Origin: Bradymonadia bacterium
GTDB lineage: Bacteria; Myxococcota_A; Bradymonadia; UBA7976; UBA1532
Direction of reading: 5' to 3'
Length of the DNA: 64,000 nucleotides
Assembly: GCA_046290225.1 (NCBI GenBank)
Contig: JBKAGE010000039.1
Span: 118,144-182,143, forward strand
Numbering within the stretch: the first letter of the stretch is position 1; each line of letters begins with the position of its first letter. The position numbers were made by a program, and so were the translations under genes. This document shows, in pieces, positions 33,608 through 54,195 of this stretch. The notes below the pieces were generated by a model. It was not told the DNA's origin. It searched no databases and saw only the letters and a program-made list of their open reading frames with translations.

Positions 33608-33649
33608 GTGGCCTCCAGGGATCGTGGCAGACCGTTCGCGTCGCCCTCA

Positions 33650-35404
33650 TCATTGCTCGGCCTCGAAGTAGTCCTCGGTCAACCCTGGATTCGGCGCGAA
33701 CTCGCGCCACTGAATCATGATCTCGCCAACCTCCATAGGCTCACTGCCGATTCGCTCGAGCGCGGCGTTCACCCGGTCGCACTGGGATTCGTTCAGGTAG
33801 AAGCGATGCCGGTCCAGCCAGTTGATCGCGGGGTGGTAGTTGTCGCGGCTTGATGACTCCAGTTGGGCGAGCTGCTCCTCGATCGTACTTCGCGCAACTC
33901 GGGGCTTGAGCACCGGGATCACGTCGACGGTCCGATCGTCGGACACGACGACCGCTAGCCGAGGTACCTCAGACGCCCCCACGTACCGAATGCCCGAGTT
34001 GTACCTGGAACCTCGAGATGGCGTGCACTCGGGTCGCGCAGGACCATCGAGAATCACGCCGATCGCGTGGCAGACGCAGTGGGGGTCCACGATAATCGTG
34101 CCGTCGATGTCACTCACACGACGATAGAGCGAAGGGCTGAGCTTCACCGGCGAAACGCGCGTGCCTTGCCCACGCAGGCGCTCGGCTTCGTCAGCTGCAT
34201 CCCGTGCAACAACCAACATGCTTCCGTGGCGTTGAGCAACCGCCGTATCGAATAGCGCTGTGAACGCATCAACGTCGTCGTCTGTTGCCTCGTCGAAGAG
34301 CCGGCGGAAGGTGTCAACGAGTCGGTTCCGGGGAAACCGCTCTTGCGGCAATGCTGGGACTCCGTACCGGCTGACGAGCAAGACCTGCTCGCCGCAGCAG
34401 AGGCTCCAGTGGAAGTGGTCGTGGAACTCGACCATGAAGACATTCTGGGTTGCCATCGGGTCGACACCGTCGGCGACAGTTCCGAGGCCCAGGATGTTCT
34501 CGCAGTCCGCGATGAGCGCGGTCTCCGCCGAGGCCATCTGGAGCACCTTTCGCGCCCATCGGGGTTGCCGGAACGGCACCGGCTCCGAGAGCTCAAGGTG
34601 GACATCGACCGCCGACCCGCTGGGGTTCGCCAGCAGCATGCGGCCTGTGCCCTCGGTGCCCTCGTACATCAATGAGGAGATTAAGTTGAATCGCTCGAAG
34701 AGGTCGGCCCCCCCATAGTTCCGTGTTCCGATGGAAAGCACCGGTGTGTGCATGAAGTCTGTCGCTGCTCGACGGACGATCTCCTCCGCCGAGCGAGAGC
34801 GACCACTGAGAAGACGGCCAGGGTCGGGACGCAGCAGCTCGTCGTAGGCTTCGTTCAAGACCTGGGCCACAGCGGAGTGAATCAGGCTGGGGCTTCCGTG
34901 GAAGTGTCCATCTGTGATCGGCTCGTTTAGAGGCGGGAACCGATGGAAGATCGCCTCCGGTAGCTGCAGGACCGGGACGACGTAGTAGCCTTCCACCGGA
35001 GCCGGACGGCCAGCAAACGAGCGGACCTCGTTGTCGCTGTCGTAGGTTGCGAGCGCGGCCTGCACCGCCTTCCGTGCCGAGTCGCGGCGGATGTTCTCCG
35101 GCTTGTCGCGCATGCTCGGCTCGTCGCCGTAGTACATGTTCTGCAACGGGTGCTCGCGCACCTCGGCTTCGATAGCGGCCAGCAAACCGTCGAAGAGCTC
35201 CAGGGGCCACTTTCCATCCTCGGGTTCGACGCACACTTCGTGTGGCTTCGATTCCCCTGGGACCGTCGCCCCGACCACAAGGCATTCCGCTCCGGCATCC
35301 TCGACCCCGAGCTCGGCCATGACGTTGTTCATCCGACGCTCGACGTCGTATCTGTAGTGCAGCTGGTACCCCCACATGAATAGCGTGATCGTCTTTCGGC
35401 TCAT
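33650..35404 (-). CDS. DisA_N/diadenylate cyclase (DAC)-domain protein with long N-terminal extension
   Basis: HGSMLVV, DIDGTIIVD (DGA-like), GVILDG, RGSRYNS (RHR-like), VVVSDDRTV. Confidence 0.8.
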   Translation of the reverse strand: MSRKTITLFMWGYQLHYRYDVERRMNNVMAELGVEDAGAECLVVGATVPGESKPHEVCVEPEDGKWPLELFDGLLAAIEAEVREHPLQNMYYGDEPSMRDKPENIRRDSARKAVQAALATYDSDNEVRSFAGRPAPVEGYYVVPVLQLPEAIFHRFPPLNEPITDGHFHGSPSLIHSAVAQVLNEAYDELLRPDPGRLLSGRSRSAEEIVRRAATDFMHTPVLSIGTRNYGGADLFERFNLISSLMYEGTEGTGRMLLANPSGSAVDVHLELSEPVPFRQPRWARKVLQMASAETALIADCENILGLGTVADGVDPMATQNVFMVEFHDHFHWSLCCGEQVLLVSRYGVPALPQERFPRNRLVDTFRRLFDEATDDDVDAFTALFDTAVAQRHGSMLVVARDAADEAERLRGQGTRVSPVKLSPSLYRRVSDIDGTIIVDPHCVCHAIGVILDGPARPECTPSRGSRYNSGIRYVGASEVPRLAVVVSDDRTVDVIPVLKPRVARSTIEEQLAQLESSSRDNYHPAINWLDRHRFYLNESQCDRVNAALERIGSEPMEVGEIMIQWREFAPNPGLTEDYFEAEQ

Positions 35405-36132
35405 GCTTCCTCCGTGGGGGCCTCAGCGGACTTTGGAGACGCGCCTGCCTCAGTTTCAGCAGTGGCCTCGGGCTCATCACTGCCTGAGGCAGCGTGGCCG
35501 CCGTGCTTGGTCGTCTCAAAGGCCTTGTCAGCTTCTGCGAAGCTGCCGTGTTGCTCGTCTACTCGGAGCCGACCCTGAAGCTCACCTGCACTGTTGCGGT
35601 CCGTCCAGTACTGGCCTACCAAGCCGGTTGCTGGGTCGCCTTCGACGTCTAGGAGGATCGCGCCGTAGTGGATGGGGCTACGGTCACGTACGGCGAGCTG
35701 AGGCTCGTTGCGGTACACGCCCGAGATTCTGTACACACCATCCTCCGCGCGATGAACTGACGACCCGACAAGCTCGGAGCTCGACTCGTCGGTCATCAGC
35801 CGCAGGCTCAGATGGGAATAGGTCTGGCGAACAACGAGGTAGCCGGTCTTCTCCGGCACCACCTCGCCCGTCGCCGGGTCTTGCCAGTTGCTCTTCAGAC
35901 TCACCCGCCAAGTACCGTTCAGGTTGGGTTTCTCAACGAACCACCCGTGTAGCCATCGCCACTTCCATGCCCAGTGTTGAAAGGCTAGGAGGAGCAGCGA
36001 CATGGAGGTAATGGTCGCGGACATCGACGTCAGCCATTCGATCTTCACCGCGACGCCGCTGACAAGGAGCACCAGCCCGCTGATGACCGCTGCCGCGATC
36101 AGTATCGTGCTCAAGTGAAGTCGAGAGATCAT
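35401..36132 (-). CDS. cap15: CBASS Cap15-like effector (2TM plus beta-barrel, S-2TMbeta)
   Basis: two TM helices, then PNLNGTW, VRQT, TDESSS, YRNEP, HYG, GQYWTDR..G; ATGA overlap with the cyclase. Confidence 0.88.
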   Translation of the reverse strand: MISRLHLSTILIAAAVISGLVLLVSGVAVKIEWLTSMSATITSMSLLLLAFQHWAWKWRWLHGWFVEKPNLNGTWRVSLKSNWQDPATGEVVPEKTGYLVVRQTYSHLSLRLMTDESSSELVGSSVHRAEDGVYRISGVYRNEPQLAVRDRSPIHYGAILLDVEGDPATGLVGQYWTDRNSAGELQGRLRVDEQHGSFAEADKAFETTKHGGHAASGSDEPEATAETEAGASPKSAEAPTEEA

Positions 36133-37055
36133 CCGAGCACCCCCACGTACGTCCAAGCGCCCACGACGAACTGTCTCGCCTGCTCTCGCGTCCACGGTTG
36201 ACTGGGCCGAAACAGGTACTTGAGCTCGTTGACCTCGCCCCACTCGCGGCACGTCTCGTCCTTCTCGGTGGCGGAGTAGAGGTAGGCCAGGATGCGTGCC
36301 ACATCGTCGGTGTATGCCGCGCTTCCGAAGTGCTTGTCGGGCACGTTCCAAACAAGGCACTCGATCAGGTATGAGGGAATCGGCGCCGCCTCGGCTCTTC
36401 CGGCTTGCTCCATCTCGTTGCGCAGCCGTTTGAGGATTCGGACCATCTTCTTGTATCGCGTGCCAGTATCCTGGTTCTTGTTGGTGCCGTTGCGGTAGTT
36501 CTGCTCCGGCCAGTTCACGATGCGTCCGCCGTTGTCTGGGTGCAGCTCCGTCCCGGACAGGTAGCGGACCTGGCCCAACACGTCGCGGTAGTACCGGCGA
36601 TGCTCGAATGTCGGAACGACATCCGCGTCGACGCGGTAGCTGTTCTCGTGGAGGTCGATTGCCTTGTTGCCGCGGGTCACGCTCTTTGCCCCCAGATAGG
36701 CTCGGAGCGCTGCCTCGACGTCGTCCTTGAACTGCCCGTAGGTATAGCTGGCGGTCACGAGCCCCACATCGGCATCGGTGGTCCCATCGGAGTGGTCGGC
36801 GAAGAAGACATCCATGCAGCGAACACACACATCGACGTCGCTGTCGGAGCGCACGTTTGTCCCGTTGCGGTACGAGCCCTGGGCAAAGACCTCTATGTTC
36901 CTGGTAGCGAAGCCGACGTAGGAGCGCACCGCGTTCCGCACGACACTGACCGCGTTGTCACACCGGTCCGTTTCGGTTGTCGAAGGCGGGCGGCCCCACG
37001 AACGAAAGTCTTGTTCCCAGTCTCGTCCCATCACTGCTCTCGTCGAGATACTCAT
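36129..37055 (-). CDS. cdnE: CBASS CD-NTase (CdnE-like cyclic dinucleotide synthase)
   Basis: QGSYRNGTNVRSDSDVD, DADVVP, IVNWPEQNY.NG..KN, YKKMVRILK, PSYLIECLVWN; alternative start at 37031. Confidence 0.9.
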   Translation of the reverse strand: MSISTRAVMGRDWEQDFRSWGRPPSTTETDRCDNAVSVVRNAVRSYVGFATRNIEVFAQGSYRNGTNVRSDSDVDVCVRCMDVFFADHSDGTTDADVGLVTASYTYGQFKDDVEAALRAYLGAKSVTRGNKAIDLHENSYRVDADVVPTFEHRRYYRDVLGQVRYLSGTELHPDNGGRIVNWPEQNYRNGTNKNQDTGTRYKKMVRILKRLRNEMEQAGRAEAAPIPSYLIECLVWNVPDKHFGSAAYTDDVARILAYLYSATEKDETCREWGEVNELKYLFRPSQPWTREQARQFVVGAWTYVGVLG

Positions 37056-37063
37056 CGCGTCAC

Positions 37064-37795
37064 CTACAGCCGGAAGTTGATGCCTTCGCGGCGAAGCCGC
37101 TCCTTGCGTGTTTCGTGGTCGGGCTGGATCATGCCGAGAAGCTTCCAGAAACGTGCCGAGTGGTCGGCGACGCGCAGGTGGCAGACCTCGTGAGCGACGA
37201 CGTAGTCGACGAGTGACATCGGCCCCATGACGATGCGCCAGTTGAACCTAAGCTCGCCCTTCGACGTGCAGCTGCCCCAGCGCTTCGCCTGGTCCCGGAC
37301 CAGCACCTTTGGCTCATCTACTCCGAGGCGCTCGGCGTACAGCCGCACGCGCTCGGGGATGCGCTTCGCGGCAAGTCCCTTGTACCAGGCCGTCAGTGCC
37401 GAACGAACGAGCGTTGCCTGCGTGCCGGCTTCGGGGATCGTCGTCTCCAACCATCCGCCGCGAAGCTTGACGATCGCCGACTCGCAGCCCGCGCGCCGAT
37501 TGACGAGGAGTCGGTATTGTCGTCCGAGGTAGCTGAACGACTCGCCGCTGACGAACTCGCGAGGAGGTGGGGGCGGCCCCAGCTCTTCGAACTCGGCCAG
37601 CCGTTGCACGACCCAAGCTCCCTTCTCGCGCACCACGTCATCGATCGCTTGGCCGTCGAGTTCCTCCGGCGCCAGGACCAGCACGCCATCTGCGAGGTCG
37701 ACGGCGATCGTCACCGTGCTTCGGCGCGCGCTTCTGTGGACGACGAAGGGTATCGTGCTCGTCCCGAAGCTGATGGATCGCTCAGTACCCATCAT
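37064..37795 (-). CDS. M48/YgjP-like metallopeptidase associated with type I R-M
   Basis: RWGSC, DYVVAHEVCHL..H...FW. Confidence 0.9.
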   Translation of the reverse strand: MMGTERSISFGTSTIPFVVHRSARRSTVTIAVDLADGVLVLAPEELDGQAIDDVVREKGAWVVQRLAEFEELGPPPPPREFVSGESFSYLGRQYRLLVNRRAGCESAIVKLRGGWLETTIPEAGTQATLVRSALTAWYKGLAAKRIPERVRLYAERLGVDEPKVLVRDQAKRWGSCTSKGELRFNWRIVMGPMSLVDYVVAHEVCHLRVADHSARFWKLLGMIQPDHETRKERLRREGINFRL

Positions 37796-40770
37796 CGCTT
37801 CACCAACTGCACGCGAGCAAGGTCGAGAATCTTCGCGGTCATCGGCTCGATGGCCGCGCGATCGAACCCCGCCGCCTTCAGCCGCTTCTTCACCGCCATG
37901 CGCATGCGGCGCTGCACATCGTCCTTGAGGTGCCAGTCCACAACCGTGAGCCCCTCCAGCGACTCCAGGACGTCGCGAGCAAGGTCCCGGCGCGCCATCT
38001 CTGGAAGCAGGCCATCGGGCGCCTCGCCGTCGACGGCGGCCTGAGCGAAGACCTCGAAGATCGCGTACCCCGGCTCGGACAGACCGAGTTCATCAGCGCG
38101 AGCTGGGATGTCGCGTATGTCGAGAACGATGTGAGTCAGCAGGGACAGCTGCTCCGCAGCGGTGATCTGCTCCTCGCGTCGCTGCTGGATGATTCGCTCC
38201 AGAGTTTCCGACAGTGACTGAAACACTACGGGGTTCTCGTCCATCCGCACGTTGATCTCGTGCCGGATGGCGTGCTCCATCTCGCTCGCGCGAGCCTCGT
38301 CCGACCCAAGCTTTTTCACCTCCTCCTCGAATTCGGCGGCGAGGATCGAGATGGGCTCGACAAGCCCCTGCACATCGGTCGTGGTGATGTGCTGCTCGAT
38401 GAGGGCGCGCACCTTGGCTCGGCATCCTGTCAGGTCGAACTGGTCATCGCGGAACCGCACCCGAGCGGCGTTGCGCACTTTGCCGAGCCACTTGAGGTCA
38501 TCGACGAACGGCAGCGCGCTGGGATCCGGAAGGAGCATGTCGAGGGACTGGGAGAAGCGCCGAAACGCCATCTCGAACTCCGCCCTGACGTCTTCGGGCT
38601 CCAACACTTTGAGACAGGCTTCCAGGTCGGAGTGGTCGACCCGTTGAAAGAAGCGCATCACCCGGCGATGCCTGGATTCCAGCTGCGGGAGCTCGGATGT
38701 CCTCGGCTTCATCGCCCCCTGCACGTCGCTCGGGGAAAAGATAGCTAGGGCCTCCTCGAGGTGATGGGCGACACCCCAGTAGTCGACGACCAGACCGAAG
38801 TCCTTGTTGTCGGCCGTCCGGTTCACACGGGCGATAGCCTGCAGGAGAGTGTGCTCACGCAGCGATGAGTCGAGGTACATCACCTGCTCAACTGGGGCAT
38901 CGAAGCCCGTGAGCAGCATGTCGCACACCACGATGATGGAAAGAGGGTCGTCGGGATCCTTGAAGCGCTCGATGAGGGTGCGCTGTTCGTCCTTGCTCGT
39001 CTTCCACTTGACCAGGTGTTCCGGGTCGTTGTGGGACGTGGACATGATGATCGCCGACGGCGGCGCTCCCAGTCTGTCGAGCGTTTCCTTGTACGTGACC
39101 GCAGCTTCTCGAGAGCAAGCGACGACCTGAGCCTTGAATCCGTTGGGCCGGATGTGTTGCTCGAAGTGCTCGATGATGTCGAGACAGATGCGTTCGACGC
39201 GGCGGGGCGCCCCAGCGATGGCCTCGGCCGTGGCATAGCGCGATTTGATTGCCTCGCGCTCCTCATCGCTCCGGTCCTTGAAATAGCGGCCAAACAGGGC
39301 GTCGATGCTCGTGCCGAGCACCTGGTCCATCGGCTGCCTCATCTCGTAGAAGATGGGGACGGTGGCTTCGTCCTGGACAGCCTGCTCGATGGTGTAGGTG
39401 TGGATGTAGCGCCCAAACGTCTGGAAGGTGCTCTTGTCCTTCTTGTCGATCGGGGTTCCGGTGAAACCGAGGAAGCAGGCGTTGGGGAGAGCACGGCGCA
39501 TGTTGGCAGCGAGGCTGCGGTACTGAGTTCGGTGAGCCTCATCGACCATCACAAAGATGTTCTCGGCCCGGTTGAGGACCGGGTGACGGTTCGAAGAGGA
39601 CTCCTGGAACTTCTGCACGGTGGTCATCACCGTCTGGCCCGTGTCCTTCGACAGCAACGACCGCAGGTGCTTGACGCTCTTGGCTTGCTCCGGATTGGGG
39701 AATCCGCACCGCTTGAACGTCGTCGAGATCTGTCGGTCGAGATCGCGGCGATCCGTGACCACGACGAGGGTCGGGTTCTCGGTCGAGGGCAGACGCCGAA
39801 GCTTCACGGCCAGGTAGACCATGGTGAGAGACTTGCCCGAGCCCTGGGTGTGCCACACCACGCCGCCTCGCTCGTTTGGTCGCGGCGCGGCAGTGATCCG
39901 CTCAAGCGCTCGGTTCACCGCGATGAATTGCTGGTAGCGGGCGAGCTTCTTGACGGTCTTGGAACCCTCGACCTCGAAGACGATGAAGTTGCGGATGAGG
40001 TCGAGGAGGTTCTCGGGCCGGAACACGCCCCAAAGGAGCGCCTCTTGAGCACGAGGGATCCTTCCGATTTCACGCTGAAGTTCATCGAGGGTTAGCGGGA
40101 AGGGGACCTTCCAGTACCCCCAGAATCGCCCCGGCGTTGCGGTCGTGGCGTACTTCGCCGCTTCTCCGCACGTGCTGACGAGAATCTGCGCGGTGTGAAA
40201 CAGCCGCGGGGCGCCAAGGTTGCGAAACCCGTCGGTGAGCTCTTGATACCGGGTCATCTGCTTGATGCCCTCGTCGAGAGGGGCTCGGATAGTCGGGCTC
40301 TTGCACTCGACTATCCCAATCGGGATGCCGTTCACGAACACCACGAGGTCCGGGATGATCGTCTTCTTCCCACCCTGGACCCGATACTGGCGAGTGAACA
40401 CGAGCTCGTTGTTGGTAGGGGTTTCGAAGTCGATATACCGGACGGTCTGCCCCTGGAGTCCGTGGCCGAGGTCCTGCGGCAGCGAGATGTTGTGGACGAG
40501 GGCGGTGTGAACCTTCTCGTTGGCATCGATCAGCCCGGTCGCGGCGACATGCGAAAGGTGTTGGACCGCATTCTGGACGTTGACGTCATCGATCCAGGGA
40601 TTGAGCCGCCGCAGGGCGGCCTGCAGGCGGCCGATGAGGAGGGGCTCCGACTGGGACGCCCGCTCGGCATCGAGTTCATCAGCCGGGACGAAGGTGTATC
40701 CCAACCGCTCGAGCAAGTCGGCGGCGGGTTCTTCCGCGAGGTGGATCTCGTTCCAGTCGGTGGTGCTCAT
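37792..40770 (-). CDS. hsdR: type I restriction enzyme subunit R
   Basis: PD..ECK nuclease, WHTQGSGKS, DEAHR, GFTGTP, MLLTGFDAP, QAIARVNR. Confidence 0.97.
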   Translation of the reverse strand: MSTTDWNEIHLAEEPAADLLERLGYTFVPADELDAERASQSEPLLIGRLQAALRRLNPWIDDVNVQNAVQHLSHVAATGLIDANEKVHTALVHNISLPQDLGHGLQGQTVRYIDFETPTNNELVFTRQYRVQGGKKTIIPDLVVFVNGIPIGIVECKSPTIRAPLDEGIKQMTRYQELTDGFRNLGAPRLFHTAQILVSTCGEAAKYATTATPGRFWGYWKVPFPLTLDELQREIGRIPRAQEALLWGVFRPENLLDLIRNFIVFEVEGSKTVKKLARYQQFIAVNRALERITAAPRPNERGGVVWHTQGSGKSLTMVYLAVKLRRLPSTENPTLVVVTDRRDLDRQISTTFKRCGFPNPEQAKSVKHLRSLLSKDTGQTVMTTVQKFQESSSNRHPVLNRAENIFVMVDEAHRTQYRSLAANMRRALPNACFLGFTGTPIDKKDKSTFQTFGRYIHTYTIEQAVQDEATVPIFYEMRQPMDQVLGTSIDALFGRYFKDRSDEEREAIKSRYATAEAIAGAPRRVERICLDIIEHFEQHIRPNGFKAQVVACSREAAVTYKETLDRLGAPPSAIIMSTSHNDPEHLVKWKTSKDEQRTLIERFKDPDDPLSIIVVCDMLLTGFDAPVEQVMYLDSSLREHTLLQAIARVNRTADNKDFGLVVDYWGVAHHLEEALAIFSPSDVQGAMKPRTSELPQLESRHRRVMRFFQRVDHSDLEACLKVLEPEDVRAEFEMAFRRFSQSLDMLLPDPSALPFVDDLKWLGKVRNAARVRFRDDQFDLTGCRAKVRALIEQHITTTDVQGLVEPISILAAEFEEEVKKLGSDEARASEMEHAIRHEINVRMDENPVVFQSLSETLERIIQQRREEQITAAEQLSLLTHIVLDIRDIPARADELGLSEPGYAIFEVFAQAAVDGEAPDGLLPEMARRDLARDVLESLEGLTVVDWHLKDDVQRRMRMAVKKRLKAAGFDRAAIEPMTAKILDLARVQLVKR

Positions 40771-42045
40771 TCGCTCACCCTCCCGTCGGTGTCGTTGAGC
40801 TTGGCGATCAGCTCGGCAGGCATGCGGACGCGGCCGCTCAGGAGCTCCTTGGCGAGGCCGCGCTTCATCTCGGTGAGCTCAGCGAGGTAGCGGGTCTCGG
40901 CTTCGATCCGGGTGTCGAAGGCTCGGCCCACGTCAGCGATGACCTCCTGCTCCTCGGGTGGGGGAAGCAGGATGCGTATCTTCTTGAACACCGGCATGTA
41001 GATGTCCGGCAGCACGGAGCCGGCCTGCAGTCTCTTCCACTCGCGGTCCATGTGCCGGAACACCTGAACCAGGTAGTCCGGTTGGAGCTTCGGACCGCAG
41101 ACCCAGTTGGCGAAGTGCTGGCTGGTGGCCATCTCTCGACCCATCTTGGAGCAGAGTCCTACAGAGGCCGTTCGGAGCAGAACCACGGTGCCCTTGGGGA
41201 GCAGGCGGGCCGAGGAGTTTGCAAGGCCGAGCGTGCCGATCGTCTGCGTTGTGTCTCTGATCTCAAGGCCCCGCAGTCCCTCTGAATCAGTGAGGGAGAT
41301 CCAAGGGATCTCTCCGTCCCAGTACTCTGGGCGCTTGCGGCTGGGCGTGTGGCCGCTCTCGAGGCGTGCGATCTTGGTTAGCTGGACGAGCTGCCAGTGC
41401 GCCGGGATCTCCTCGATGTTCGGAGCCACACGACCCATGGGCCAAGTGCTCGGTAGGGGCTGCATCTCGGTGCGGAAGCGAGGGTGACCGAGGGTCAGCA
41501 GCTCCCGCATGCTTTGGTGTTTCGAGATCCGAAGCTGTTGGATGAGGGCCTCGGTCGATGCAATGGCGCCGGCCACTCGATCGATGCATGCGCCGATCGC
41601 GACCTGCTCATCGAGTGGGGGGAAGGTGACCCGAGAGGCCAGGAACTCGGCCGGCGACACGCGCTGTGCCTTTCGCGAGCCGATGGCGCTTCCGCGGTAG
41701 CGCTTGTAGAAGGCCGGGCGCGAGACGTGTGCCACCAGCCAAGTCGGGTCGACTTCTCCACGAATGTCGAAGCACGGCAGATCGGAGGTGCTCTCGAAGC
41801 CGTCAAGCTCAGGCGGAATGAGTCCGAAAGCACCGTTGAGGAAGTCGAGCTTGCTGTAGATGAACTGGCCCGCCTTTCGACGGTAGTAGACCGTGGCAGC
41901 GCTTCCGCGGTCGTTGACCTTCGGCACGACGCCTTTGCCATATAGGCGGACGGTGAGCTTCTGGGCGGTCGCTCCGTTGGTTCCTGGCAGACGGCTCTCC
42001 TTGAGGACGTCACGGAAGCGGCCTAGCCTCCAAGTGCGCGGCAGA

Positions 42046-42056
<11 letters not shown>
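40767..42056 (-). CDS. hsdS: type I R-M specificity subunit S
   Basis: two TRDs, each followed by PP..EQ..I conserved helices; sits between hsdM and hsdR. Confidence 0.92.
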
Positions 42057-43560
<1,504 letters not shown>

Positions 43561-43576
43561 GGTGGTCTCCTTGAGA

Positions 43577-43969
43577 TCAGGCGTGCCAGATGGTTCCAGT
43601 AAGCCCGAGCTCGTCGAGCCAGGCGCGGGCGTCTTGCTGCGCCGCGGAGGGCACAGCAAGCACGAGGGTGAGGTCGTTTTGAGTCGCGTAGGCGTCGAAG
43701 AGGCGAAGCTGGCTCTCGGCGTGCGCGGTGCGCAACGACTCCGCCGTTTCGGCCTCAACGATGAATCCGCCACCGAGGGCATCTGGTCGGTGGCCGCTCG
43801 TGTCTCCGTCCCAATAGATGACTGGGGGCTGGTCGTGTCCGGGGAGGTCAGCCTTGATGACCGCAGACCTCACTTCGTCCTCGATCGTGTTCACCGCCAA
43901 TCGAACGAGGCGCTGGTGCTCCGCGCCCGCGGCCGCGTTGCGGCGAAATCCCTGAAGACTGCTACTCAT
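43577..43969 (-). CDS. small hypothetical protein, possible PD-(D/E)xK fold
   Basis: H..HRPD..IVEAET..Q pattern; AGGAG SD; inside the R-M operon. Confidence 0.6.
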   Translation of the reverse strand: MSSSLQGFRRNAAAGAEHQRLVRLAVNTIEDEVRSAVIKADLPGHDQPPVIYWDGDTSGHRPDALGGGFIVEAETAESLRTAHAESQLRLFDAYATQNDLTLVLAVPSAAQQDARAWLDELGLTGTIWHA

Positions 43970-44594
43970 CGTCATCTCCTTCGGACTGTTCGAGCCCCGT
44001 CAAAAGGCGGGCGGCGACCTCGAGCCCGACCTGCCGCCGCAGCTCCGCGGCCTCGATCGCGGCCTGATAGCTCGCGTCCGTCGCTTCGATCAGGGCGACG
44101 ATTTGCTGCTGCACCTCGAGCGGAGGAACGGGCACGGGAATCCCCGCAACGTCCTTGCGACCGAGCGCGAGCGTCATGGCCGACGACCGGCTCCGGGAGA
44201 GGACCTCATGCTCGCCGCGCGGCGTATGGAGCCACGCAACCAACACCGGAGCGAGAAGGTCGCCACGTGGGCGGAGGATCAGCAGGTTCGCGCTTGCAAT
44301 CGCTCCGGCCGCGCCGGCTCCGACCATGACGCTGCGGAATGAGGTGCCGCGGCAGGTGATCAGGACATCGCCCTTGCGCACCTTGTAGCGGACGAGACGG
44401 GTGGCCCCCGGTAGCCGAACTTCGTCAAGACCGCTGAGGCCAGACAGGAGTCCGGTGTCACCGAGGTCGCGGATGTTGACCACGCGGTAGGGCCGCCCGT
44501 CCTCGGACGCGCGACGGCTGAGCGGGAGCCCGGTGAGGATCTCGCTAACCGTCCCCAGGGGGCGTGTCGGCCATGTCGTGTTGTCGAGGTTCAT
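43962..44594 (-). CDS. single-TRD HsdS-like protein
   Basis: PLGTVSEILTG, KGDVLIT, IPVPVPPLEVQQQIV. Confidence 0.8.
   Translation of the reverse strand: MNLDNTTWPTRPLGTVSEILTGLPLSRRASEDGRPYRVVNIRDLGDTGLLSGLSGLDEVRLPGATRLVRYKVRKGDVLITCRGTSFRSVMVGAGAAGAIASANLLILRPRGDLLAPVLVAWLHTPRGEHEVLSRSRSSAMTLALGRKDVAGIPVPVPPLEVQQQIVALIEATDASYQAAIEAAELRRQVGLEVAARLLTGLEQSEGDDDE

Positions 44595-45098: not shown

Positions 45099-45102
<4 letters not shown>
44713..45102 (-). CDS. small HTH protein accompanying the serine recombinase
   Basis: YADVARRHGLTRARLTQLMNLLLLAPDIQE; ATGA overlap with the recombinase stop. Confidence 0.8.
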
Positions 45103-46760
<1,658 letters not shown>

Positions 46761-46858: not shown

Positions 46859-47061
46859 GGACGACGAGAAGGCGAAGTCGCTCGTGCGAGCGATGCTGGA
46901 GGCGGGGCTGGCCGAGCGGCTCTGACGACGCTCTCCTCGCGTAGACATGGAGGTGCGGCACGGGTAATATCACCCGTGGCCGGGTCGATACGCCCGACAG
47001 TCGCGCACCCTTCGCTCTCGCGAAAGCGCGGAGGGCGTGGTGTTCTTTCAATGGAGGTCTG

Positions 47062-47078
47062 TTGGCACAGCCCTCGCT
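47062..47078 (+). promoter_or_regulatory. sigma-54 (-24/-12) promoter
   Basis: TTGGCACAGCCCTCGCT: GG at 47064-65 and GC at 47076-77 with exact N10 spacing, about 70 nt before the helicase ATG. Confidence 0.7.
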
Positions 47079-47146
47079 CTTACGTCCGGTCGCACAGGTC
47101 GCCCAGCTTTCAGGGTGGCCCCTGACCAACGAGGACGTGAGAGACG

Positions 47147-49759
47147 ATGGCACTGCTCCACTACCGAAATCTGGGAGTCCACCGCCCCGACGTGCTGATG
47201 CAGCGGGCGTTCTACGGGCTCAAGACCTTCTACGACTTCCTGCGACGAACCAAGGACTACACGGAGAGCGACGCCGCGGTGAAGCGGCTCGCCTGGGCGC
47301 CCGGACCGGCGCCTGACGACGATGACGATGGTGAGCGCCCCGCTGGGTACTGGGTCCAGCTGACCGAGCCGGCGGACCGCCCCAACGAGCCAGAGTCGAC
47401 CTTCCGGGACTTCCTCGACGAGAACGTCTCAGAGCTCTACGAGGCGGCGACGCCTTCAGAGGACGCGAACGCGCAACGACCGAGCCGGCTCGACTTCGGA
47501 CGAGCACGGCGCATCGAGGTGCTCGACCGAGACCCCGAGACGTACCAGCTGCTGCTGGAGCGACCGCCGCAAGAGCCCGGGCTGCTGCTGCGGCCCAACA
47601 CCTGGCCGCTGCGATGCCAGATCCAGGCGCTCCAGACGTTGCAGAACTCGCCGAGCTCGGAGCACCTGCCGCTCTTGCGGCTCTTCGAGTCGGTTGGGCA
47701 CGCGGACTGGCCCGCCGTGTGGCCCGCGGACGCCGCGCTCGACCAATGGATGGTGCTCACCGACGACCGGCGCCCAGGGACGGACGAGCAGCGGCGCTTC
47801 GTTCAGCTCGCCCTCGCGACGCCAGACTTCGCGTTCCTCGAGGGGCCGCCCGGATCGGGCAAGACGACCGCGATCTGCGAGCTCGTGCTGCAGCTGGCGC
47901 GCGAGGGCAAGAGAGCGCTGCTGTGCGCCTCGACACACGTCGCGGTCGACAACGTGCTGGAACGGCTCATGGACGAGCGCAACGCTCACCGCGACCTCGT
48001 CATCCCGATCCGCATCGGCGACCGCCGCAACGTCTCGGAGAAGGCGAGGCCGTGGCAGCTCGAGCGGTTCGTGCGGACGGAGCGGGAGCGGCTGCTTCGC
48101 GAGCTCCGGCGGGAGAGAGCCCCGAGCAGCTCGCAACGAGCGATGCTCTCCGTCCTGCAGCATGGCCCCTCCGTGGTCGAACGGCTCGTGCTGGACGCGG
48201 CCAACCTGGTCTGCGGGACCACGATCGGAATCCTCCAGCACCCTGACATCAAGGCGGGCGGTCACGGCACGCCATCATTCGACGTCTTGATCGTGGACGA
48301 GGCGTCGAAGACGACGTTCCAGGAGTTTCTCGTCCCGGCGCTGCTCGCGAAGCGGTGGATCATCGTGGGCGATCCGAAGCAGCTCTCACCCTACGTGGAC
48401 GACGACGCGATGGCGATCAACGTCGCGTCTTGCCTTCCCTCGAGCGAAGTCCAAGCTGCGTGCGTCGACACCTTCATCGCCGGGCACCGCAGCCGCGGCA
48501 AACAGCGGACGACGGTCTCAGCTGTCACAGCGAAGGGGCTGACGGCCTATCGTGCGCAGGCCGAGGCACGGGGCGTCGCCCTGGCGACTCCAGCCGACGA
48601 CAGCCTCCACCTCGCCATGTCACCTCTCATCGCCGGCGAGCTCGAGAGCTTGGCCGACCGCGCCGAGGACATGCCGCTGGACGTCGCCATCGTTCGGGCG
48701 CCCGACGGCGCGCTCCCTGGTCTTCGTCGAAGGGCTGATGCCTGGAACCGGTTGCAGAGGCGACGACGTGAGGAGGAGCCCTCTTGGTCTGGGGAGATCG
48801 GGTGGCGTCTGGCGAGGCTCTACGAGCAGCGTTTCGCCGACGCCGCCTACACCGGGGGCCGGAAGACCACCGCACAGCGCCTCCGCGAACAGGTGGAGGA
48901 GCTGCTGCCCGACGACAGCACCGGCGTCGACAAGGAGGACGTGTGGCGAGAGATCGACCGGGTGCGCCGGGTGGCCCTGCCGTCTGTGCTCGAGTCGCTG
49001 CGACACGGGTTCGAGCGCGACCCGCGGCAGCGGCAAGGGACCGCGCTATCCGACGGGCTCCCCGATCGCGCTCTCGACCAACGGCATGTGCTGCTGAGCA
49101 CGCAGCATCGAATGCACGGCGACATCGCGGCCTTCTCGCACGATCACATCTACGAGGGCCAGGCGCTCCACACTCCGGTCTACCTCGCCGAGCAGCGTGA
49201 CTGGAGCTACGCACGGTACGCCCATCGAGCCCTGTGGCTCGACGTCCGTGGGCGGTTCAACCGCAAGTTCAACGCGAACCAGCGCGAGGCAGAGGCGGTT
49301 GTCGCGGAGCTTCGACACTTCGACCGGTGGGCCCGACGAAACCCACGCGGCGACGGACACCCCTGGGAGGTAGCCGTCCTGACGTTCTACCGAGGCCAGG
49401 AACGCGAGGTCCGCCAGCACCTGCGGCGCTGGACCGAGAACCATCGAGCCATGCGCCACTTCCGGCGCGGGGGGAAGACGCCCTACCTGACGATCGAGCT
49501 CTGCACCATAGACCGCTTCCAGGGGCACGAGGCAGACCTCGTCCTGATCAGCGTGGCGAGCCCACACCCGACGAGCTTCTTGGAGAGCCCGAACAGGCTC
49601 AACGTGGCGCTCACGCGAGCGCGATTCCAGCGCGTCGTGATCGGCAACCGGACGGGCATGTACGACGCCCGGGCCCTGGAGAGCGGTGCCAAGCAGCGCA
49701 GCGTCCTCGCGGAGCTCGCTGCCAACGAAGCTTGGGACAGCGTGGAGGTGCGGTCATGA
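47147..49759 (+). CDS. SF1 Upf1/DNA2-like helicase
   Basis: EGPPGSGKTT, STHVAVDN, VDEAS, GDPKQL, QHRMH, TIDRFQGHEAD, NRLNVALTRAR. Confidence 0.92.
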   Translation: MALLHYRNLGVHRPDVLMQRAFYGLKTFYDFLRRTKDYTESDAAVKRLAWAPGPAPDDDDDGERPAGYWVQLTEPADRPNEPESTFRDFLDENVSELYEAATPSEDANAQRPSRLDFGRARRIEVLDRDPETYQLLLERPPQEPGLLLRPNTWPLRCQIQALQTLQNSPSSEHLPLLRLFESVGHADWPAVWPADAALDQWMVLTDDRRPGTDEQRRFVQLALATPDFAFLEGPPGSGKTTAICELVLQLAREGKRALLCASTHVAVDNVLERLMDERNAHRDLVIPIRIGDRRNVSEKARPWQLERFVRTERERLLRELRRERAPSSSQRAMLSVLQHGPSVVERLVLDAANLVCGTTIGILQHPDIKAGGHGTPSFDVLIVDEASKTTFQEFLVPALLAKRWIIVGDPKQLSPYVDDDAMAINVASCLPSSEVQAACVDTFIAGHRSRGKQRTTVSAVTAKGLTAYRAQAEARGVALATPADDSLHLAMSPLIAGELESLADRAEDMPLDVAIVRAPDGALPGLRRRADAWNRLQRRRREEEPSWSGEIGWRLARLYEQRFADAAYTGGRKTTAQRLREQVEELLPDDSTGVDKEDVWREIDRVRRVALPSVLESLRHGFERDPRQRQGTALSDGLPDRALDQRHVLLSTQHRMHGDIAAFSHDHIYEGQALHTPVYLAEQRDWSYARYAHRALWLDVRGRFNRKFNANQREAEAVVAELRHFDRWARRNPRGDGHPWEVAVLTFYRGQEREVRQHLRRWTENHRAMRHFRRGGKTPYLTIELCTIDRFQGHEADLVLISVASPHPTSFLESPNRLNVALTRARFQRVVIGNRTGMYDARALESGAKQRSVLAELAANEAWDSVEVRS

Positions 49760-50868
49760 ACCTCAACATCAACCTCAAGCGCTCCCTGTCAGTCAGCTGT
49801 TGGCGGGTCGTCGGCCAGGTGGCCCGGGCGTCGAAGCGAGCCGAGCTCATCCCGATCCTCCTCCGAGTTCGCGACCAAGATCAGACCAACGCCGAGGACA
49901 TCGCCTCGCACCTCTTCTTCGAAGCCCGCTCGCGAAGGGTGGTGGCCGAGCGGCTCCTGCGGATCGCGACGACCTACAAGCTGCTCAGCGAGAGCCGTGG
50001 CTGGTTCTCGCTCACCGATGAGGGGCGCGTGGCCATCGAGAGCGAGCAGGTGTTCGTGCCGGAACACGGAACCTGGACCATCTGGGCGAGCGAGGACCCG
50101 CTGCTGGGTTCGCGCGTACTGCGTGTCGAGGCGTGGCAAGAGCCCTCCGCCTACGACGAGGTGTGGGGCAAGGAGCGCGACGCAGAGCGAAACTTCGAGC
50201 GCTTGCCCAGGTGGCTGAGCGAGGTTGTCGGCCACGTCCAGCGCCCATGCGCTGGCGACGGCCACAGCGTCCGAGTCGATGAGCTCGAGGCGCAAGGAGA
50301 GGTGGTCTCGGCCGAGGCCGGCCTGACCATCGAGTGGAGCGTCAGCTCGGGCCGGCTGCGGGTCACGGGCACCCTCGGCGGCAGGAAGGTCCACACGGAC
50401 CTGGATCCACCCACGCGGTCGAGAAGCGGGGTCTGGCAAGAGCTCCTTCAGCACGAGGGCCTTTGGCCCAGCTGGGACGAGACGAGGGGGGCGCTCCTCG
50501 TCGGATTCGAAGACACCGAGGCCGCCGAGCGCGAGTCCATGGCTCGCACCCTGCGGATCGAACGACCACGGCTCGAGGGCCTCGGCTCCTTCGATGCGAT
50601 CTCGGTCGGCGGGGTGGGCCTAGCGGCGCGCTCCCAGCCCGACGCCCAGCGGTGGGCAAAGTGGCGGCTCGAGTCGCGGATTCAGGACTACGCCACACAG
50701 CGGCGCATGGATGAGTGGGCGCAAGCCGCCGCGGCGCCATTCACAGACCATCGAATCGATCTTCCGAGTCGAGGTGACCTCGCGCGTGAAGCCTGGAGTG
50801 CGCGAGAGGAGCTTCCCTCCCCACGGACCTGGCACCTCGTTGCCGCAGAAGACTGGAGGCTGCGATGA
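49756..50868 (+). CDS. hypothetical protein with N-terminal winged-helix-like segment
   Basis: GGAGGT SD, ATGA overlaps at both ends; AEDIASHL..LLS..FSLTDEG pattern. Confidence 0.75.
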   Translation: MNLNINLKRSLSVSCWRVVGQVARASKRAELIPILLRVRDQDQTNAEDIASHLFFEARSRRVVAERLLRIATTYKLLSESRGWFSLTDEGRVAIESEQVFVPEHGTWTIWASEDPLLGSRVLRVEAWQEPSAYDEVWGKERDAERNFERLPRWLSEVVGHVQRPCAGDGHSVRVDELEAQGEVVSAEAGLTIEWSVSSGRLRVTGTLGGRKVHTDLDPPTRSRSGVWQELLQHEGLWPSWDETRGALLVGFEDTEAAERESMARTLRIERPRLEGLGSFDAISVGGVGLAARSQPDAQRWAKWRLESRIQDYATQRRMDEWAQAAAAPFTDHRIDLPSRGDLAREAWSAREELPSPRTWHLVAAEDWRLR

Positions 50869-52370
50869 ACCGCTCGGACTGGCTCAAGAACCACCAGCGC
50901 CTGGTGGATCAGCGTGGAGTGGAGCTTCCGCCAACATGGGTTGCGCGAGAGAACACTGGCCCTATCGGAGACGAGTTGGGACAGCACGTACACACCTCCG
51001 GGAGGCGGCGCCAGGTCGCTCGACGAGTGGCAGGTCTTCTCGCTGGCGCGTCGGAGATGGCCGTGGTGTCGACCTTTCTGCTCGCCGACCCGGACGTCGA
51101 AGACGCCCTCATGGCAGCCGCCCAGCGTGGGGTCCGCGTCTACGTCATGCTGGCGTCCGAGGCTCGCCTGGGCCGTGAGGAGAGCGACGGCGAGTTCGAC
51201 CGTCGGGTGCTGTCGGAGCACAAGGAGATGCTCAAGCGACTCGCCGGGCACGTCCTGTTTCGGTCGGCGCCACACTTCCACGCCAAGGTCGTCGTCGTCG
51301 ATCCGCAGTCGAACCCGCGAGGCATCCTGCTGACTGCGAACCTCACCCGCGAGGCGCTCGAGCGGAACGAAGAGCTCGCCGTTGACCTCACCGCGCAGGA
51401 GGCAAGGGACGCGGCTTCGCTGTTGGGCTGGGCCATGTGGGAGACGGCCGAGCACGAGATGGTCGATCCGGCAGACCGCTTTCGGGCCGTGAAGCCCATG
51501 GGTAGCCTCGAGCCGCCGGCCATCGAGCTGCCTGCGACGACGCCGGAGCGGACCGCGTTGAGGCAGAGGGCTCTCGAGCTTGTCGACGGCGCGCGCGATC
51601 GGCTCGTCGTCGCAAGCTTCGGTTGGGACGCAGAGCACCCGCTCGTCCGCCGCCTCATCGAGCGCGCGCGGGAGGGCGTCGAGGTGGTGGTGCTTGCGAG
51701 GCTGCGGCCCTCGGTGATGCCCGCGTTGATCCGCCTTAGCGAGGCGGGAGCGACCGTCTACGGGTTCCGGTGGCTGCATGCGAAGGCGATCTGGTCGGAC
51801 CAGGGAGAAGCGCTCGTCATGTCCGCCAACCTCCAACCCGAAGGGCTCGATCGTGGGCTCGAGCTTGGGCTGGAGTTGAAGGGCACGCGGGCCGAGGAGC
51901 TTCACGGGCGACTCCGTTCCTGGGCAGCGGCGGCCAGATGGAAGCTCGAGCACGGCCCATCGCTGGGTGACGTGCGCGGGAGCGCGAAGGTCTGGAACGA
52001 TCGCGAGTTCGTCGACATCGAGGTCGTCCCGAGCCTGGAGGTGTCCCTCGGCGAACACGTCGCGAGGTCCGCCGACGACCTGAGCGTCGAGCCGCCGGCG
52101 CTGCCATCCAACGGGGCGCTGCCGCGCCCCGCACATGAGCTCGTCTGCACCTGGGCGGTCACGGCGCCCACGCTCCACCGAAAGGCGAAGGAGGTGTTCC
52201 GCGCTGCCAAGGGCGACGAGAAGCGCCGGTCCTACGAGCCTCCCGTGTTCAAGGACCGGGGGCGCACGGTCGTCGCCGTTCGTCACGCCGACGAGCTGCA
52301 CGCGGCGAAGCGTCTCCTCGGGGAGCTCTCGGCCGACGCGGTCGTCGTCAGGGCGGAGGGGGATCGATGA
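50865..52370 (+). CDS. phospholipase D superfamily protein with two HKD motifs (putative nuclease)
   Basis: FHAKVVVVD..TANLT..NEE and LHAKAIWSD..SANL. Confidence 0.9.
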   Translation: MNRSDWLKNHQRLVDQRGVELPPTWVARENTGPIGDELGQHVHTSGRRRQVARRVAGLLAGASEMAVVSTFLLADPDVEDALMAAAQRGVRVYVMLASEARLGREESDGEFDRRVLSEHKEMLKRLAGHVLFRSAPHFHAKVVVVDPQSNPRGILLTANLTREALERNEELAVDLTAQEARDAASLLGWAMWETAEHEMVDPADRFRAVKPMGSLEPPAIELPATTPERTALRQRALELVDGARDRLVVASFGWDAEHPLVRRLIERAREGVEVVVLARLRPSVMPALIRLSEAGATVYGFRWLHAKAIWSDQGEALVMSANLQPEGLDRGLELGLELKGTRAEELHGRLRSWAAAARWKLEHGPSLGDVRGSAKVWNDREFVDIEVVPSLEVSLGEHVARSADDLSVEPPALPSNGALPRPAHELVCTWAVTAPTLHRKAKEVFRAAKGDEKRRSYEPPVFKDRGRTVVAVRHADELHAAKRLLGELSADAVVVRAEGDR

Positions 52371-53809
52371 GCGGCCAACCTCAGACGCTCCTCTGTTGGC
52401 ACGCCGAGCGCGCGGGCCTCGAAGTGTTGACCCGAGCCATCAAGGCGCTCCGCAACCGACGTATCCGAGTCGACCGGGTCATCTACCTCGTCCAGGAGGG
52501 GCGCGAGCCGGAGGTGCCCCAGAAGGTGGAGAAGGCGACGGTGGAGTCCGTCGCCCTCCACCTGGAAGATCCAACGATGCACTCCGCGATCTACCCCTTG
52601 ATCAAGCAGAGGGTGCTCCCGTTGGCGAGGGCAGCGGGCGGTGGGCTGCACATCAACGTCTCGCCCGGCACGCCGGCGATGCACGCGGTCTGGCTCGTGC
52701 TCCACGCCGGAGGGGCGTTCCCGGAGGGCACGAGGCTCTGGTCGTCGCAGTACAGCCGGGAGACGAAGCGCTCGAGGATCGACCCAGTCGACTTCGAGGT
52801 CACGACCTATCTGGCGGAGATCCACCGGCTGCAACGCGCGGAGCCCGAGCGGGCCGTGTACGAGCCAGATGCCGCGTCGCCAGCGAGGCGAGCGGCCTTC
52901 GAGCGTCTCGCACGGTATTCGAAGGTGATCGGCGCTCCGTTGCTTGTCCTGGGTGAACGCGGTATCGGCAAGACTAGGCTCGTCGAGACCTACGTGGCCA
53001 CGCTGAAGGCGCGCGAGCAGGTGGTCACGGTCGCGTGCGGCGGCCTTGACTCCTCGCTCGCCGAGAGCCTTCTCTTCGGACACCGCAAGGGGGCGTTCAC
53101 CGGCGCAGCGGTGGACCGCCAGGGGCTGCTCGCCGAGGCCGACGGCGGCATCCTCTTCCTCGACGAGGTGCAGGACCTCCCCAAGAGCGCGCAGCGCAGA
53201 CTCGTTCGCGTGTTCCAAGACCGGCAGCGGCGGTTTCGTCCGGTCGGCAGCGACAAGGAGACGTCGGTGGACGTGGAGCTGGTCTGCGCCTCCAACCTGC
53301 CGGTGGCCGAGCTCCGTGAGCAGCTCGACGCCGACCTCTTCGATCGACTGAGCCACCTCGCGGTGCGGGTCCCTCCGCTCCGGGAGTGCCGAGCCGACGT
53401 CGAGGCCGACTGGACCAAGGTCTGGCGGGAGCTGCGACAGCGCCAGGACCTCCCGGAGGACGCACCGTGGACCCCGAGGCTCGCGCGCGTGCTCGGTCAG
53501 CATCCGCTGCCTGGCAACCTCCGAGACCTGCAGCGCCTGGCAGTCCTGCTGATGGCGTGGTGGGGCGACACCGATGAGGAGGCGGCGGTTGATCGGGCCG
53601 TCGAGGAGTGGAGCCAGTGGACGTCGAGCACAGCCCCGCTGGACGCCGAGTTCGGCAGTGGCTCGAGGAACGACCGCATCAAGTGGTTTCGGGCGCGGCT
53701 CGCTCTCTGGGCCAAGGACGTCCACGAGACCTGGACTGCGGCCGGCGAGGCCCTCGGCTGCGACGAGAAGACGCTGCGCCAGGATGCTGCGCTGCTCGAT
53801 GAGACGTGA
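52367..53809 (+). CDS. sigma-54 enhancer-binding protein with CARF/RtcR-like N-terminal domain
   Basis: LHINVSPGTPAM (CARF-like), GERGIGKT, intact GAFTGA, LFLDEV, DLFDRL, PGNLRDL, C-terminal HTH. Confidence 0.88.
   Translation: MSGQPQTLLCWHAERAGLEVLTRAIKALRNRRIRVDRVIYLVQEGREPEVPQKVEKATVESVALHLEDPTMHSAIYPLIKQRVLPLARAAGGGLHINVSPGTPAMHAVWLVLHAGGAFPEGTRLWSSQYSRETKRSRIDPVDFEVTTYLAEIHRLQRAEPERAVYEPDAASPARRAAFERLARYSKVIGAPLLVLGERGIGKTRLVETYVATLKAREQVVTVACGGLDSSLAESLLFGHRKGAFTGAAVDRQGLLAEADGGILFLDEVQDLPKSAQRRLVRVFQDRQRRFRPVGSDKETSVDVELVCASNLPVAELREQLDADLFDRLSHLAVRVPPLRECRADVEADWTKVWRELRQRQDLPEDAPWTPRLARVLGQHPLPGNLRDLQRLAVLLMAWWGDTDEEAAVDRAVEEWSQWTSSTAPLDAEFGSGSRNDRIKWFRARLALWAKDVHETWTAAGEALGCDEKTLRQDAALLDET

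Positions 53810-54078: not shown

Positions 54079-54195
<117 letters not shown>

Follow-up and report, generated by a model that had tools for sequence, protein, structure and literature searches.

A conserved, mobile and probably inducible helicase-nuclease cassette with its own CARF-type sigma-54 activator in a Bradymonadia bacterium

RESULTS

Layout of the cassette

We analyzed a stretch of 64,000 nucleotides (nt) from a Bradymonadia bacterium (GenBank assembly GCA_046290225.1, contig JBKAGE010000039.1, positions 118,144 to 182,143; hereafter the window), which carries an operon of four genes encoding an Upf1-like helicase, a winged helix-turn-helix (wHTH) protein, a phospholipase D (PLD)-family nuclease, and a sigma-54 activator with a CARF domain, i.e., the cassette under study (Table 1). 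An original prediction, made from the sequence alone, had presented this operon as a candidate new defence system that amplifies its own expression. As stated there, all four genes are joined by ATGA stop/start overlaps (at 49756, 50865, and 52367), and the operon ends at 53809. We found no terminator-like site between 46700 and 54250, and a search for an internal promoter or terminator within the operon was likewise negative; promoter, enhancer, activator, and cargo together span 6.9 kb. The cassette proteins were scanned against Pfam, NCBIfam, and PADLOC, and defence families were scanned for with the PADLOC-DB 2.0.0 profiles.

Table 1. Features of the cassette and its borders (positions in the window)
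Feature	Position	Strand	Details or basis
SF1B (superfamily 1B) Upf1-like helicase, 870 amino acids (aa)	47147..49759	+	Pfam AAA_11/AAA_12; PADLOC MkoA; structural model
Orphan protein with elongated winged helix, 370 aa	49756..50868	+	Structural model; hhalign
PLD-family nuclease, 501 aa	50865..52370	+	Two HxKxxxxD motifs (H139, H305); Pfam PLDc_2, two stretches
CARF-AAA+-HTH sigma-54 activator, PspF1 (RtcR-like) family, 480 aa	52367..53809	+	PADLOC
Sigma-54 (-24/-12) promoter	47063..47078	+	TGGCACAGCCCTCGCT
Predicted enhancer, tandem dyad	46961..46996	+	Two 16-bp dyads (CGGGT-N6-ACCCG type), 4-bp gap, 20-bp period
Candidate weak sigma-70 promoter	46942..46970	+	TAGACA-17-TAATAT; -10 inside distal dyad
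Large serine recombinase	45099..46760	-	Adjoins cassette; Pfam Resolvase, Recombinase, Zn_ribbon_recom
tRNA-Asn	54122..54195	-	Right edge of defence-rich region

A kinase-free helicase, a wHTH protein, and a PLD nuclease

The helicase is composed of a stalk and beta-barrel, RecA1, an insertion of ~220 aa, and RecA2, and its Walker A, Walker B, and QHRM motifs are invariant in 34/34 aligned copies. The PADLOC MkoA profile matched it with an E value of 1e-80, only over profile positions 505-1082 of 1112; no kinase was matched by Pfam, and MkoA positions 1-504 stayed unmatched. In the structural model (pLDDT [predicted local distance difference test] 85), for which SETX, Upf1, and IGHMBP2 were the best folds, residues 16-18 to 870 align on the Upf1/IGHMBP2 core, and the start position of the protein is kept across a 25-row alignment. 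Since the Upf1 core begins at residue 16-18, there is no room for a kinase, in agreement with the prediction that none was visible. IGHMBP2 matched the model with a Z score of 28.2 (root-mean-square deviation [rmsd] 5.9, 533 positions aligned), above Dna2, a DNA enzyme (Z 25.0). Identity with PLuB was rejected, the NCBIfam model giving 121 bits against a cut-off of 999.

For the second protein, no significant family was found in Pfam, NCBIfam, or PADLOC, and PF24409 was discarded because it lay under the cut-off in all rows; relatives comprise 105 proteins and 760 cluster representatives. The wHTH-like character that had been predicted is borne out by the model (pLDDT 92), which places a winged helix at residues 25-98 (structure match with Z 10.8, rmsd 1.6-1.9, and 67-70 aligned positions). 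Foldseek did not return a significant fold for the whole protein, residues 100-370 not having been searched alone. Residues 12-117 aligned to 28 MkoB/CnuE-type N termini with an hhalign probability of 88.9% (E 2.4e-6), compared with E values of 0.058 or worse for 15 block-shuffled controls; alignments to shallow MkoB/CnuE sets were not significant (probability 0.4-16%), only the 28-row alignment being so. No fused wHTH-PLD form turned up among 8000 longer candidates, which is weak evidence. The wHTH protein is probably an adaptor between helicase and nuclease, with an N terminus homologous to that of CnuE/MkoB. A predicted helicase-wHTH complex scored 0.48 versus 0.01 for the best control, in runs with a contact agreement of at least 0% and a partner pLDDT of at least 79; a score of 0.60 or lower was reached by only 18 of 157 solved complexes and by both passing mismatches, so that the modeling lends weak support to this pairing.

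Both HKD motifs of the PLD nuclease are preserved among homologues, with H and K of each kept in 35/35 sequences and D in 35/35 and 34/35, respectively. Its nearest models were those of DISARM DrmC in PADLOC and NCBIfam, under the NCBIfam cut-off. A distant homologue matched MkoB positions 310-603 with an E value of 1e-15, and the cassette PLD itself gave no MkoB row.

A CARF activator of the PspF1 family

The fourth protein matched the PADLOC model RtcR_PspF1 CARF_AAA_HTH end to end (E 1e-159; residues 5-473 against profile positions 3-464 of 468), in keeping with the predicted enhancer-binding protein that has an intact GAFTGA motif and a CARF/RtcR-like N terminus. The match to the PADLOC RtcR model reached only 3e-41, and the NCBIfam RtcR model gave 187 bits against a cut-off of 650; the Atlas lists RtcR clusters at 0.84 for residues 1-165, which we take as a lead only. 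The activator has a Walker A motif at residue 196, GAFTGA at 242, Walker B at 263, and an arginine-finger region at 323-342. Among 24 activators, GAFTGA is intact in 21, reads GAFTDA in 2, and is lost in 1. The host has 44 activator-like matches, none but the cassette's own beyond an E value of 1e-33.

Across 21 aligned sequences, a CARF motif at about residues 95-109 hardly varies, suggestive of a site for a ligand or partner, and no Lys or Arg in CARF residues 1-165 is conserved at 85% or more. RtcR likewise lacks a conserved Lys/Arg according to Makarova et al. 2014 (PMC4012209), and is described as unresponsive to cyclic oligoadenylate (PMC9650030). Because of these two properties, cyclic oligoadenylate is the less likely ligand; of the predicted nucleotide or RNA-damage signal, it is the nucleotide of this type that loses ground.

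At an E value of 1e-70 or better, the PspF1 model matches 28/401 genomes of the host phylum. We fetched 30 PspF1 loci, 6 of which have a PLD gene directly upstream; two loci from this set that were looked at further lie 5' of CoCoNuT-like helicase loci. In a quick activator tree (47 rows, duplicates left out), 20 cassette rows and one further row group in a clade with a Shimodaira-Hasegawa-like approximate likelihood ratio test (SH-aLRT) value of 100. As side observations, the gene for a PspF1 activator grouping with three of the cassette activators lies immediately upstream of a radical-SAM (S-adenosylmethionine) gene in L137 and L140 (7173-9842), and an activator of the cassette clade (58% identical) follows a radical-SAM-like gene in L114 and L138 (9916-11346), without helicase, wHTH, or PLD genes. 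From its motif we presume the radical-SAM gene of L137/L140 to be viperin-like in appearance.

A conserved sigma-54 promoter and a putative enhancer

The -24/-12 element matched once in the 64 kb, against 0.25 expected matches and with at least one match in 19/100 shuffles, and is therefore weak when taken alone. We examined its conservation in a switch set of 26 non-duplicate loci, from which five near-duplicates had been removed; L072 and L073 were scored separately. A site with a score of at least 10/12, with GG and GC intact and at most 120 nt from the helicase start, was found in 19 of the 26 loci, compared with 23 of 5026 random windows (0.46%) and 20 of 5200 shuffles; L072 and L073 scored 10 and 9, respectively. 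We take the element as real because it is conserved across homologous loci, which upholds the predicted sigma-54 promoter 5' of the first gene. The host has an intact rpoN.

A promoter-anchored alignment revealed a tandem dyad starting about 102 bp upstream of the -24 hexamer; the original prediction had overlooked it, since it lies upstream of the interval start at 47062. With at most 5/20 mismatches, the dyad occurs in 16/26 loci versus 7/2448 random windows, beginning at -99 to -103 in 14 of those 16, and the window copy is the best dyad match in the 8.58-Mb host genome. The dyad pattern was derived from the same loci, so that only the fixed spacing and the co-variation of half-site and activator helix count as independent. 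More specifically, the half-site differs in three lineages with a different recognition (last) helix of the activator (L026/L027, L038/L039, and Vibrio L084/L085), and this co-variation suggests that the dyad is bound by the cassette's own activator. From these sequence comparisons, the dyad is the probable binding site of the cassette's activator. Promoters of this kind are reported usually to have enhancers 80-150 bp upstream (PMC4987338).

A sequence-independent dyad score of at least 9 was reached by 9/26 loci and by 57/2461 background windows, a modest separation with the wrong register in several loci. We found no second enhancer plus promoter, i.e., no wider regulon, in the host genome. 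A site for integration host factor is clear only in AT-rich homologues and not in the window.

The candidate sigma-70 site matches consensus at 9/12 positions (2 such sites in the region versus 0.4 expected). A TA...T hexamer stands at the -10 position in 8/17 loci, as against 0/17 at each of three equivalent positions, and the -35 is not conserved (mean 2.7 versus 2.3 under the null). As a lead only, this site might be the source of basal activator; glnA-ntrBC offers an analogy for basal activator supply from such a site.

Conservation and spread

With the wHTH gene as anchor, 44 loci were scored, namely 35 loci, 5 of 14 further regions, and 4 plasmids, some of them near-duplicates; the other 9 of the 14 regions, in which a distant wHTH family belongs to a different operon, were excluded. 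The helicase gene precedes the wHTH gene in 40 of 42 testable loci, and the PLD gene follows in 41/41. Of the 35 loci testable for an activator after the PLD gene, 33 have one, among them plasmids of Vibrio and Alphaproteobacteria. Thus, the gene order is conserved in most loci, as is the promoter (19/26), and homologous operons usually keep the activator, the opposite of what the original prediction had named beforehand as speaking against it.

Carriers include metagenome-assembled genomes of Deltaproteobacteria, Myxococcota, and Trueperaceae and plasmids of Vibrio, Pontibrevibacter, and Klebsiella, with intact copies in Vibrio rumoiensis (NZ_AP018688) and Pontibrevibacter (NZ_CP049815); Pseudomonas and Endozoicomonas proteins are among the wHTH relatives. 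The wHTH profile matched 19/401 genomes of the host phylum, 6 of them with this cassette type. Queries with the wHTH protein and with the activator (E ≤1e-45) each retrieved the same 4 records out of 72,556 plasmids. No match was found in 50,697 phage records, nor any in the E. coli genomes by blastn of a Vibrio homologue.

Two variant loci are described here for their layout. L032 (2530-7989) keeps the promoter and a variant dyad and lacks an activator after the PLD gene. In L087, the helicase is lost beside IS26 and the wHTH gene is split by an IS21 element, with PLD and activator intact. The nine excluded regions (L074-L077 and L079-L083; e.g., L082, 2488-12327) encode the distant wHTH family, mostly ~556 aa with a C-terminal extension (hhalign 99.9%), in an operon of an AAA ATPase, an 1100-aa Upf1-like helicase, the wHTH-like protein, a coiled-coil protein, a small gene, and an NrdG-like radical-SAM protein; no PLD or activator match was found in these nine operons, and no known system was recognized.

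Genomic setting

The cassette sits between the large serine recombinase and the tRNA-Asn gene, and to its left the window holds a type I restriction-modification (R-M) system, a Cap15-type membrane effector by a DACNG/DACNH protein, and Azaca-like genes. More specifically, the minus strand encodes at 26947-36828 a DACNG/DACNH-domain protein, then the Cap15-type effector, then Azaca-like ZacA/ZacB/ZacC genes, and at 37064-44594 the type I R-M set, which has a further short gene of specificity-like type (43962-44594), an unassigned open reading frame (ORF) of 132 aa, and a YgjP-like protease. A small ORF ending at 46925 also lies upstream of the cassette in L011, L014, and L028.

We do not claim integration of the cassette at the tRNA, because the contig has no duplicated tRNA-Asn end and no terminal repeats were found. 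One contig from run X4 connects 46916 with 53826 and passes over the whole cassette, the letters in between being not known; the recombinase element may have a cargo slot that is empty there, or the join may be a mapping artefact. Metatranscriptome contigs of three runs over the region were rejected as evidence of transcription, since coverage stayed flat over both the promoter and the recombinase on the opposite strand, and since contigs only were available.

DISCUSSION

Relation to known systems

Mokosh type I, a helicase-kinase plus a PLD protein in the account of Millman et al., with type II as one fused protein (10.1101/2022.05.11.491447), resembles the cassette in having an Upf1-like, COG1112-type helicase (MkoA) followed by a PLD nuclease (MkoB), and the MkoB-type N terminus is homologous to the cassette's separate wHTH protein. 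The cassette differs in that its helicase has no kinase, its wHTH and double PLD are separate genes, and a CARF sigma-54 activator, a promoter, and an enhancer are added; three MkoB-type loci of the host phylum have a kinase-helicase and a fused wHTH-PLD protein. Unlike in Mokosh type II, helicase and PLD are encoded by two ORFs, both in the window and in every homologous locus. Mokosh defence is reported to require helicase ATP binding and the PLD active site (10.1101/2022.05.11.491447).

CoCoNuT systems are similarly close. As described (PMC11090510), CnuH relatives typically stand upstream of an elongated wHTH fused to a nuclease, with two PLDs in type III-C, and the cassette shares with CnuH/CnuE, especially of type III-C, the Upf1-like helicase, the downstream elongated wHTH, and two PLD domains. 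In contrast to CoCoNuT loci, it lacks McrB/McrC, TerY-P, and the SPB/RTL N-terminal domains (no McrBC was found in the window operon or in annotated plasmid copies), and wHTH and PLD domains are not fused as in type III-C CnuE. RtcR-like CARF activators are stated to accompany CoCoNuT types II and III-A with their gene at the 5' end (PMC11090510), whereas the activator of the cassette stands at the 3' end. As judged from sequence, the cassette core is related to Mokosh type I and to CoCoNuT CnuH/CnuE but belongs to neither, because it has no kinase and no McrBC and encodes wHTH and PLD in separate genes.

The activator is a member of the PspF-like (RtcR_PspF1; PADLOC PDLC01994) family. Makarova et al. 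2014 describe PspF-like CARF activators beside R-M systems, and a Vibrio cholerae protein with the N-terminal motifs of the cassette activator appears in their alignment (PMC4012209). Those of the published neighbourhoods that we examined are mostly type I R-M loci with the activator first, unlike the cassette, and a search of the neighbourhood table returned no PLD rows (PMC4012209). Like rtcR-rtcBA, the cassette pairs a CARF-controlled activator with a sigma-54 promoter driven from an upstream enhancer; its activator, however, falls under the RtcR cut-off and lies inside the operon it would drive, there is no rtcA or rtcB among the four genes, and the cargo would degrade rather than repair. 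The cassette consists of known parts, including an already known activator family, in an arrangement for which we found no description in the literature searched, which did not cover Makarova et al. 2020 or bioRxiv supplements. The original prediction is thus supported in the conserved operon with its own activator and in the kinase-free Mokosh-like core, and the setting is mobile and rich in defence genes; to call the cassette a new defence system outright overstates this, its parts and activator family being known.

Proposed mechanism

Comparison across loci makes this a conserved, mobile cassette, and inducible defence is probably its function. As a whole, we explain it as a mobile, self-contained, inducible defence cassette that degrades nucleic acid, with a probability of about 0.65. 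Basal activator, possibly supplied from the sigma-70 promoter overlapping the distal dyad, would sit on the two dyads and be held repressed by its CARF domain, as CARF is reported to keep RtcR repressed until a signal comes (PMC9650030). Infection or RNA damage would then produce the CARF signal; by analogy with RtcR, the ends of cleaved RNA or a partner protein would be its likeliest form, and cyclic oligoadenylate a less likely one, a choice of ligand that we put forward tentatively. The activator would loop to the sigma-54 polymerase, leading to transcription of all four genes, and since it is the last gene of the operon it drives, positive feedback is proposed. This regulatory wiring is very probably right in view of the conserved promoter, dyad, and activator, and a defence role for the cassette is likely.

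At the effector level, the Upf1-like helicase, joined to the PLD nuclease via the wHTH protein, would unwind structured RNA or RNA:DNA and pass single strands on to the nuclease, a mode of action already proposed for Mokosh and CoCoNuT CnuHE. To our knowledge, PLD nucleases of the Zucchini type leave no 2',3'-cyclic phosphate; if this holds, the nuclease would not make its own inducer. Such enzymes are reported to make 5'-phosphate ends (PMC9138997). A loop through a HEPN nuclease has been proposed for CoCoNuTs (PMC11090510), unlike the nuclease of the cassette. The predicted self-amplification is thus likely at the transcriptional level and doubtful as a loop through RNA signals made by a PLD enzyme.

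Several observations weigh against this explanation. L032 and L033 have other genes (large ones in L033) after the PLD gene instead of an activator, which may lie further downstream or act in trans; L078 has no helicase; and the cassette on the Klebsiella plasmid L087 (CP052287.1) is broken by insertion sequences. The promoter is absent or degenerate in L020, L036, and L086, L071, L084, and L085 reach a promoter score of 10 with a non-GC -12, and L070 has a changed half-site with a near-standard recognition helix. GAFTGA is gone from the activator of L042, and 24 of the 30 fetched PspF1 loci have no PLD gene directly upstream. Pairing is also not exclusive, three cassette activators falling in a clade other than that of the 20; the family is therefore mostly a dedicated subfamily with at least one separate recruitment or replacement. 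The cassette PLD had no MkoB match in the PADLOC scan, and, given the two Z scores of the helicase model (Dna2 and IGHMBP2), the substrate may be RNA or DNA.

Alternative explanations

That last point bears on an alternative in which the same switch circuit controls a helicase-nuclease of Dna2-like or DrmC-like type that is directed at DNA, namely that of incoming phages or plasmids. It differs from our preferred explanation in substrate alone, defence role and wiring being common to both, and it draws on the DISARM DrmC models as the best for the PLD, on Dna2 among the top folds, on DNA as the usual binding partner of a wHTH, and on a panel in which Mokosh type II is reported to have protected solely against a single-stranded DNA phage. 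The top folds of the helicase, however, are RNA helicases, and the targets proposed by those who described Mokosh and CoCoNuT are RNA or RNA:DNA (10.1101/2022.05.11.491447, PMC11090510). We consider RNA slightly favoured as the substrate and the DNA-directed version unlikely, though the most serious of the alternatives. RNA could also be the substrate in a stress-induced clean-up module, a degradative counterpart of rtcBA that removes damaged host RNA with no special anti-phage role. RtcR, the nearest characterized regulator, is reported to control RNA repair under translation and oxidative stress (PMC4987338, PMC9650030), and the nearest folds of the helicase work in RNA surveillance; patchy distribution, plasmid carriage, and defence neighbours nevertheless count against such housekeeping, as do the homology of the cassette core to Mokosh and the PspF-like activators that adjoin type I R-M and CoCoNuT loci, which makes it quite improbable.

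The activator might instead be a dosage or timing device that delays or caps the nuclease after transfer into another host, the effector being constitutive and triggered at the protein level. Its place as the last gene of its own operon without an internal promoter or terminator would suit this, as would loci that lose the promoter or the adjacent activator yet keep the three effector genes. Against it stand the near-invariant CARF motif at ~95-109, which suggests a ligand or partner site, and the reported repression of RtcR by CARF until a signal (PMC9650030), and we hold it to be hardly probable. We further consider, with some doubt, a distinct anti-phage system in which the CARF activator itself would be the infection sensor, reading a new ligand or the helicase-nuclease complex and flipping a bistable sigma-54 switch; here the basal sigma-70 promoter would be buried in the enhancer, and co-evolution of enhancer and recognition helix would insulate each mobile copy.

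Implications

On the explanation that we prefer, i.e., an inducible, self-contained defence cassette, the core represents a minimal form of the Mokosh/CnuHE engine that does without kinase and McrBC; links between the helicase and PLD domains of this engine and proteins of the piRNA pathway have been reported. Screens run in uninduced or heterologous hosts would be prone to overlook systems of this kind, provided that the cassette is inducible. A role in switching on defence genes has been predicted for PspF-like CARF activators since 2014, and neither a ligand nor a target promoter has been shown for them in the literature examined; as culturable bacteria carry the cassette on plasmids, the question of the ligand can be addressed with a simple reporter. 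Should the bistable switch prove true, enhancer-dependent immunity that amplifies itself would be mapped here for the first time, and the class of ligand read by PspF-like CARF domains would be identified.

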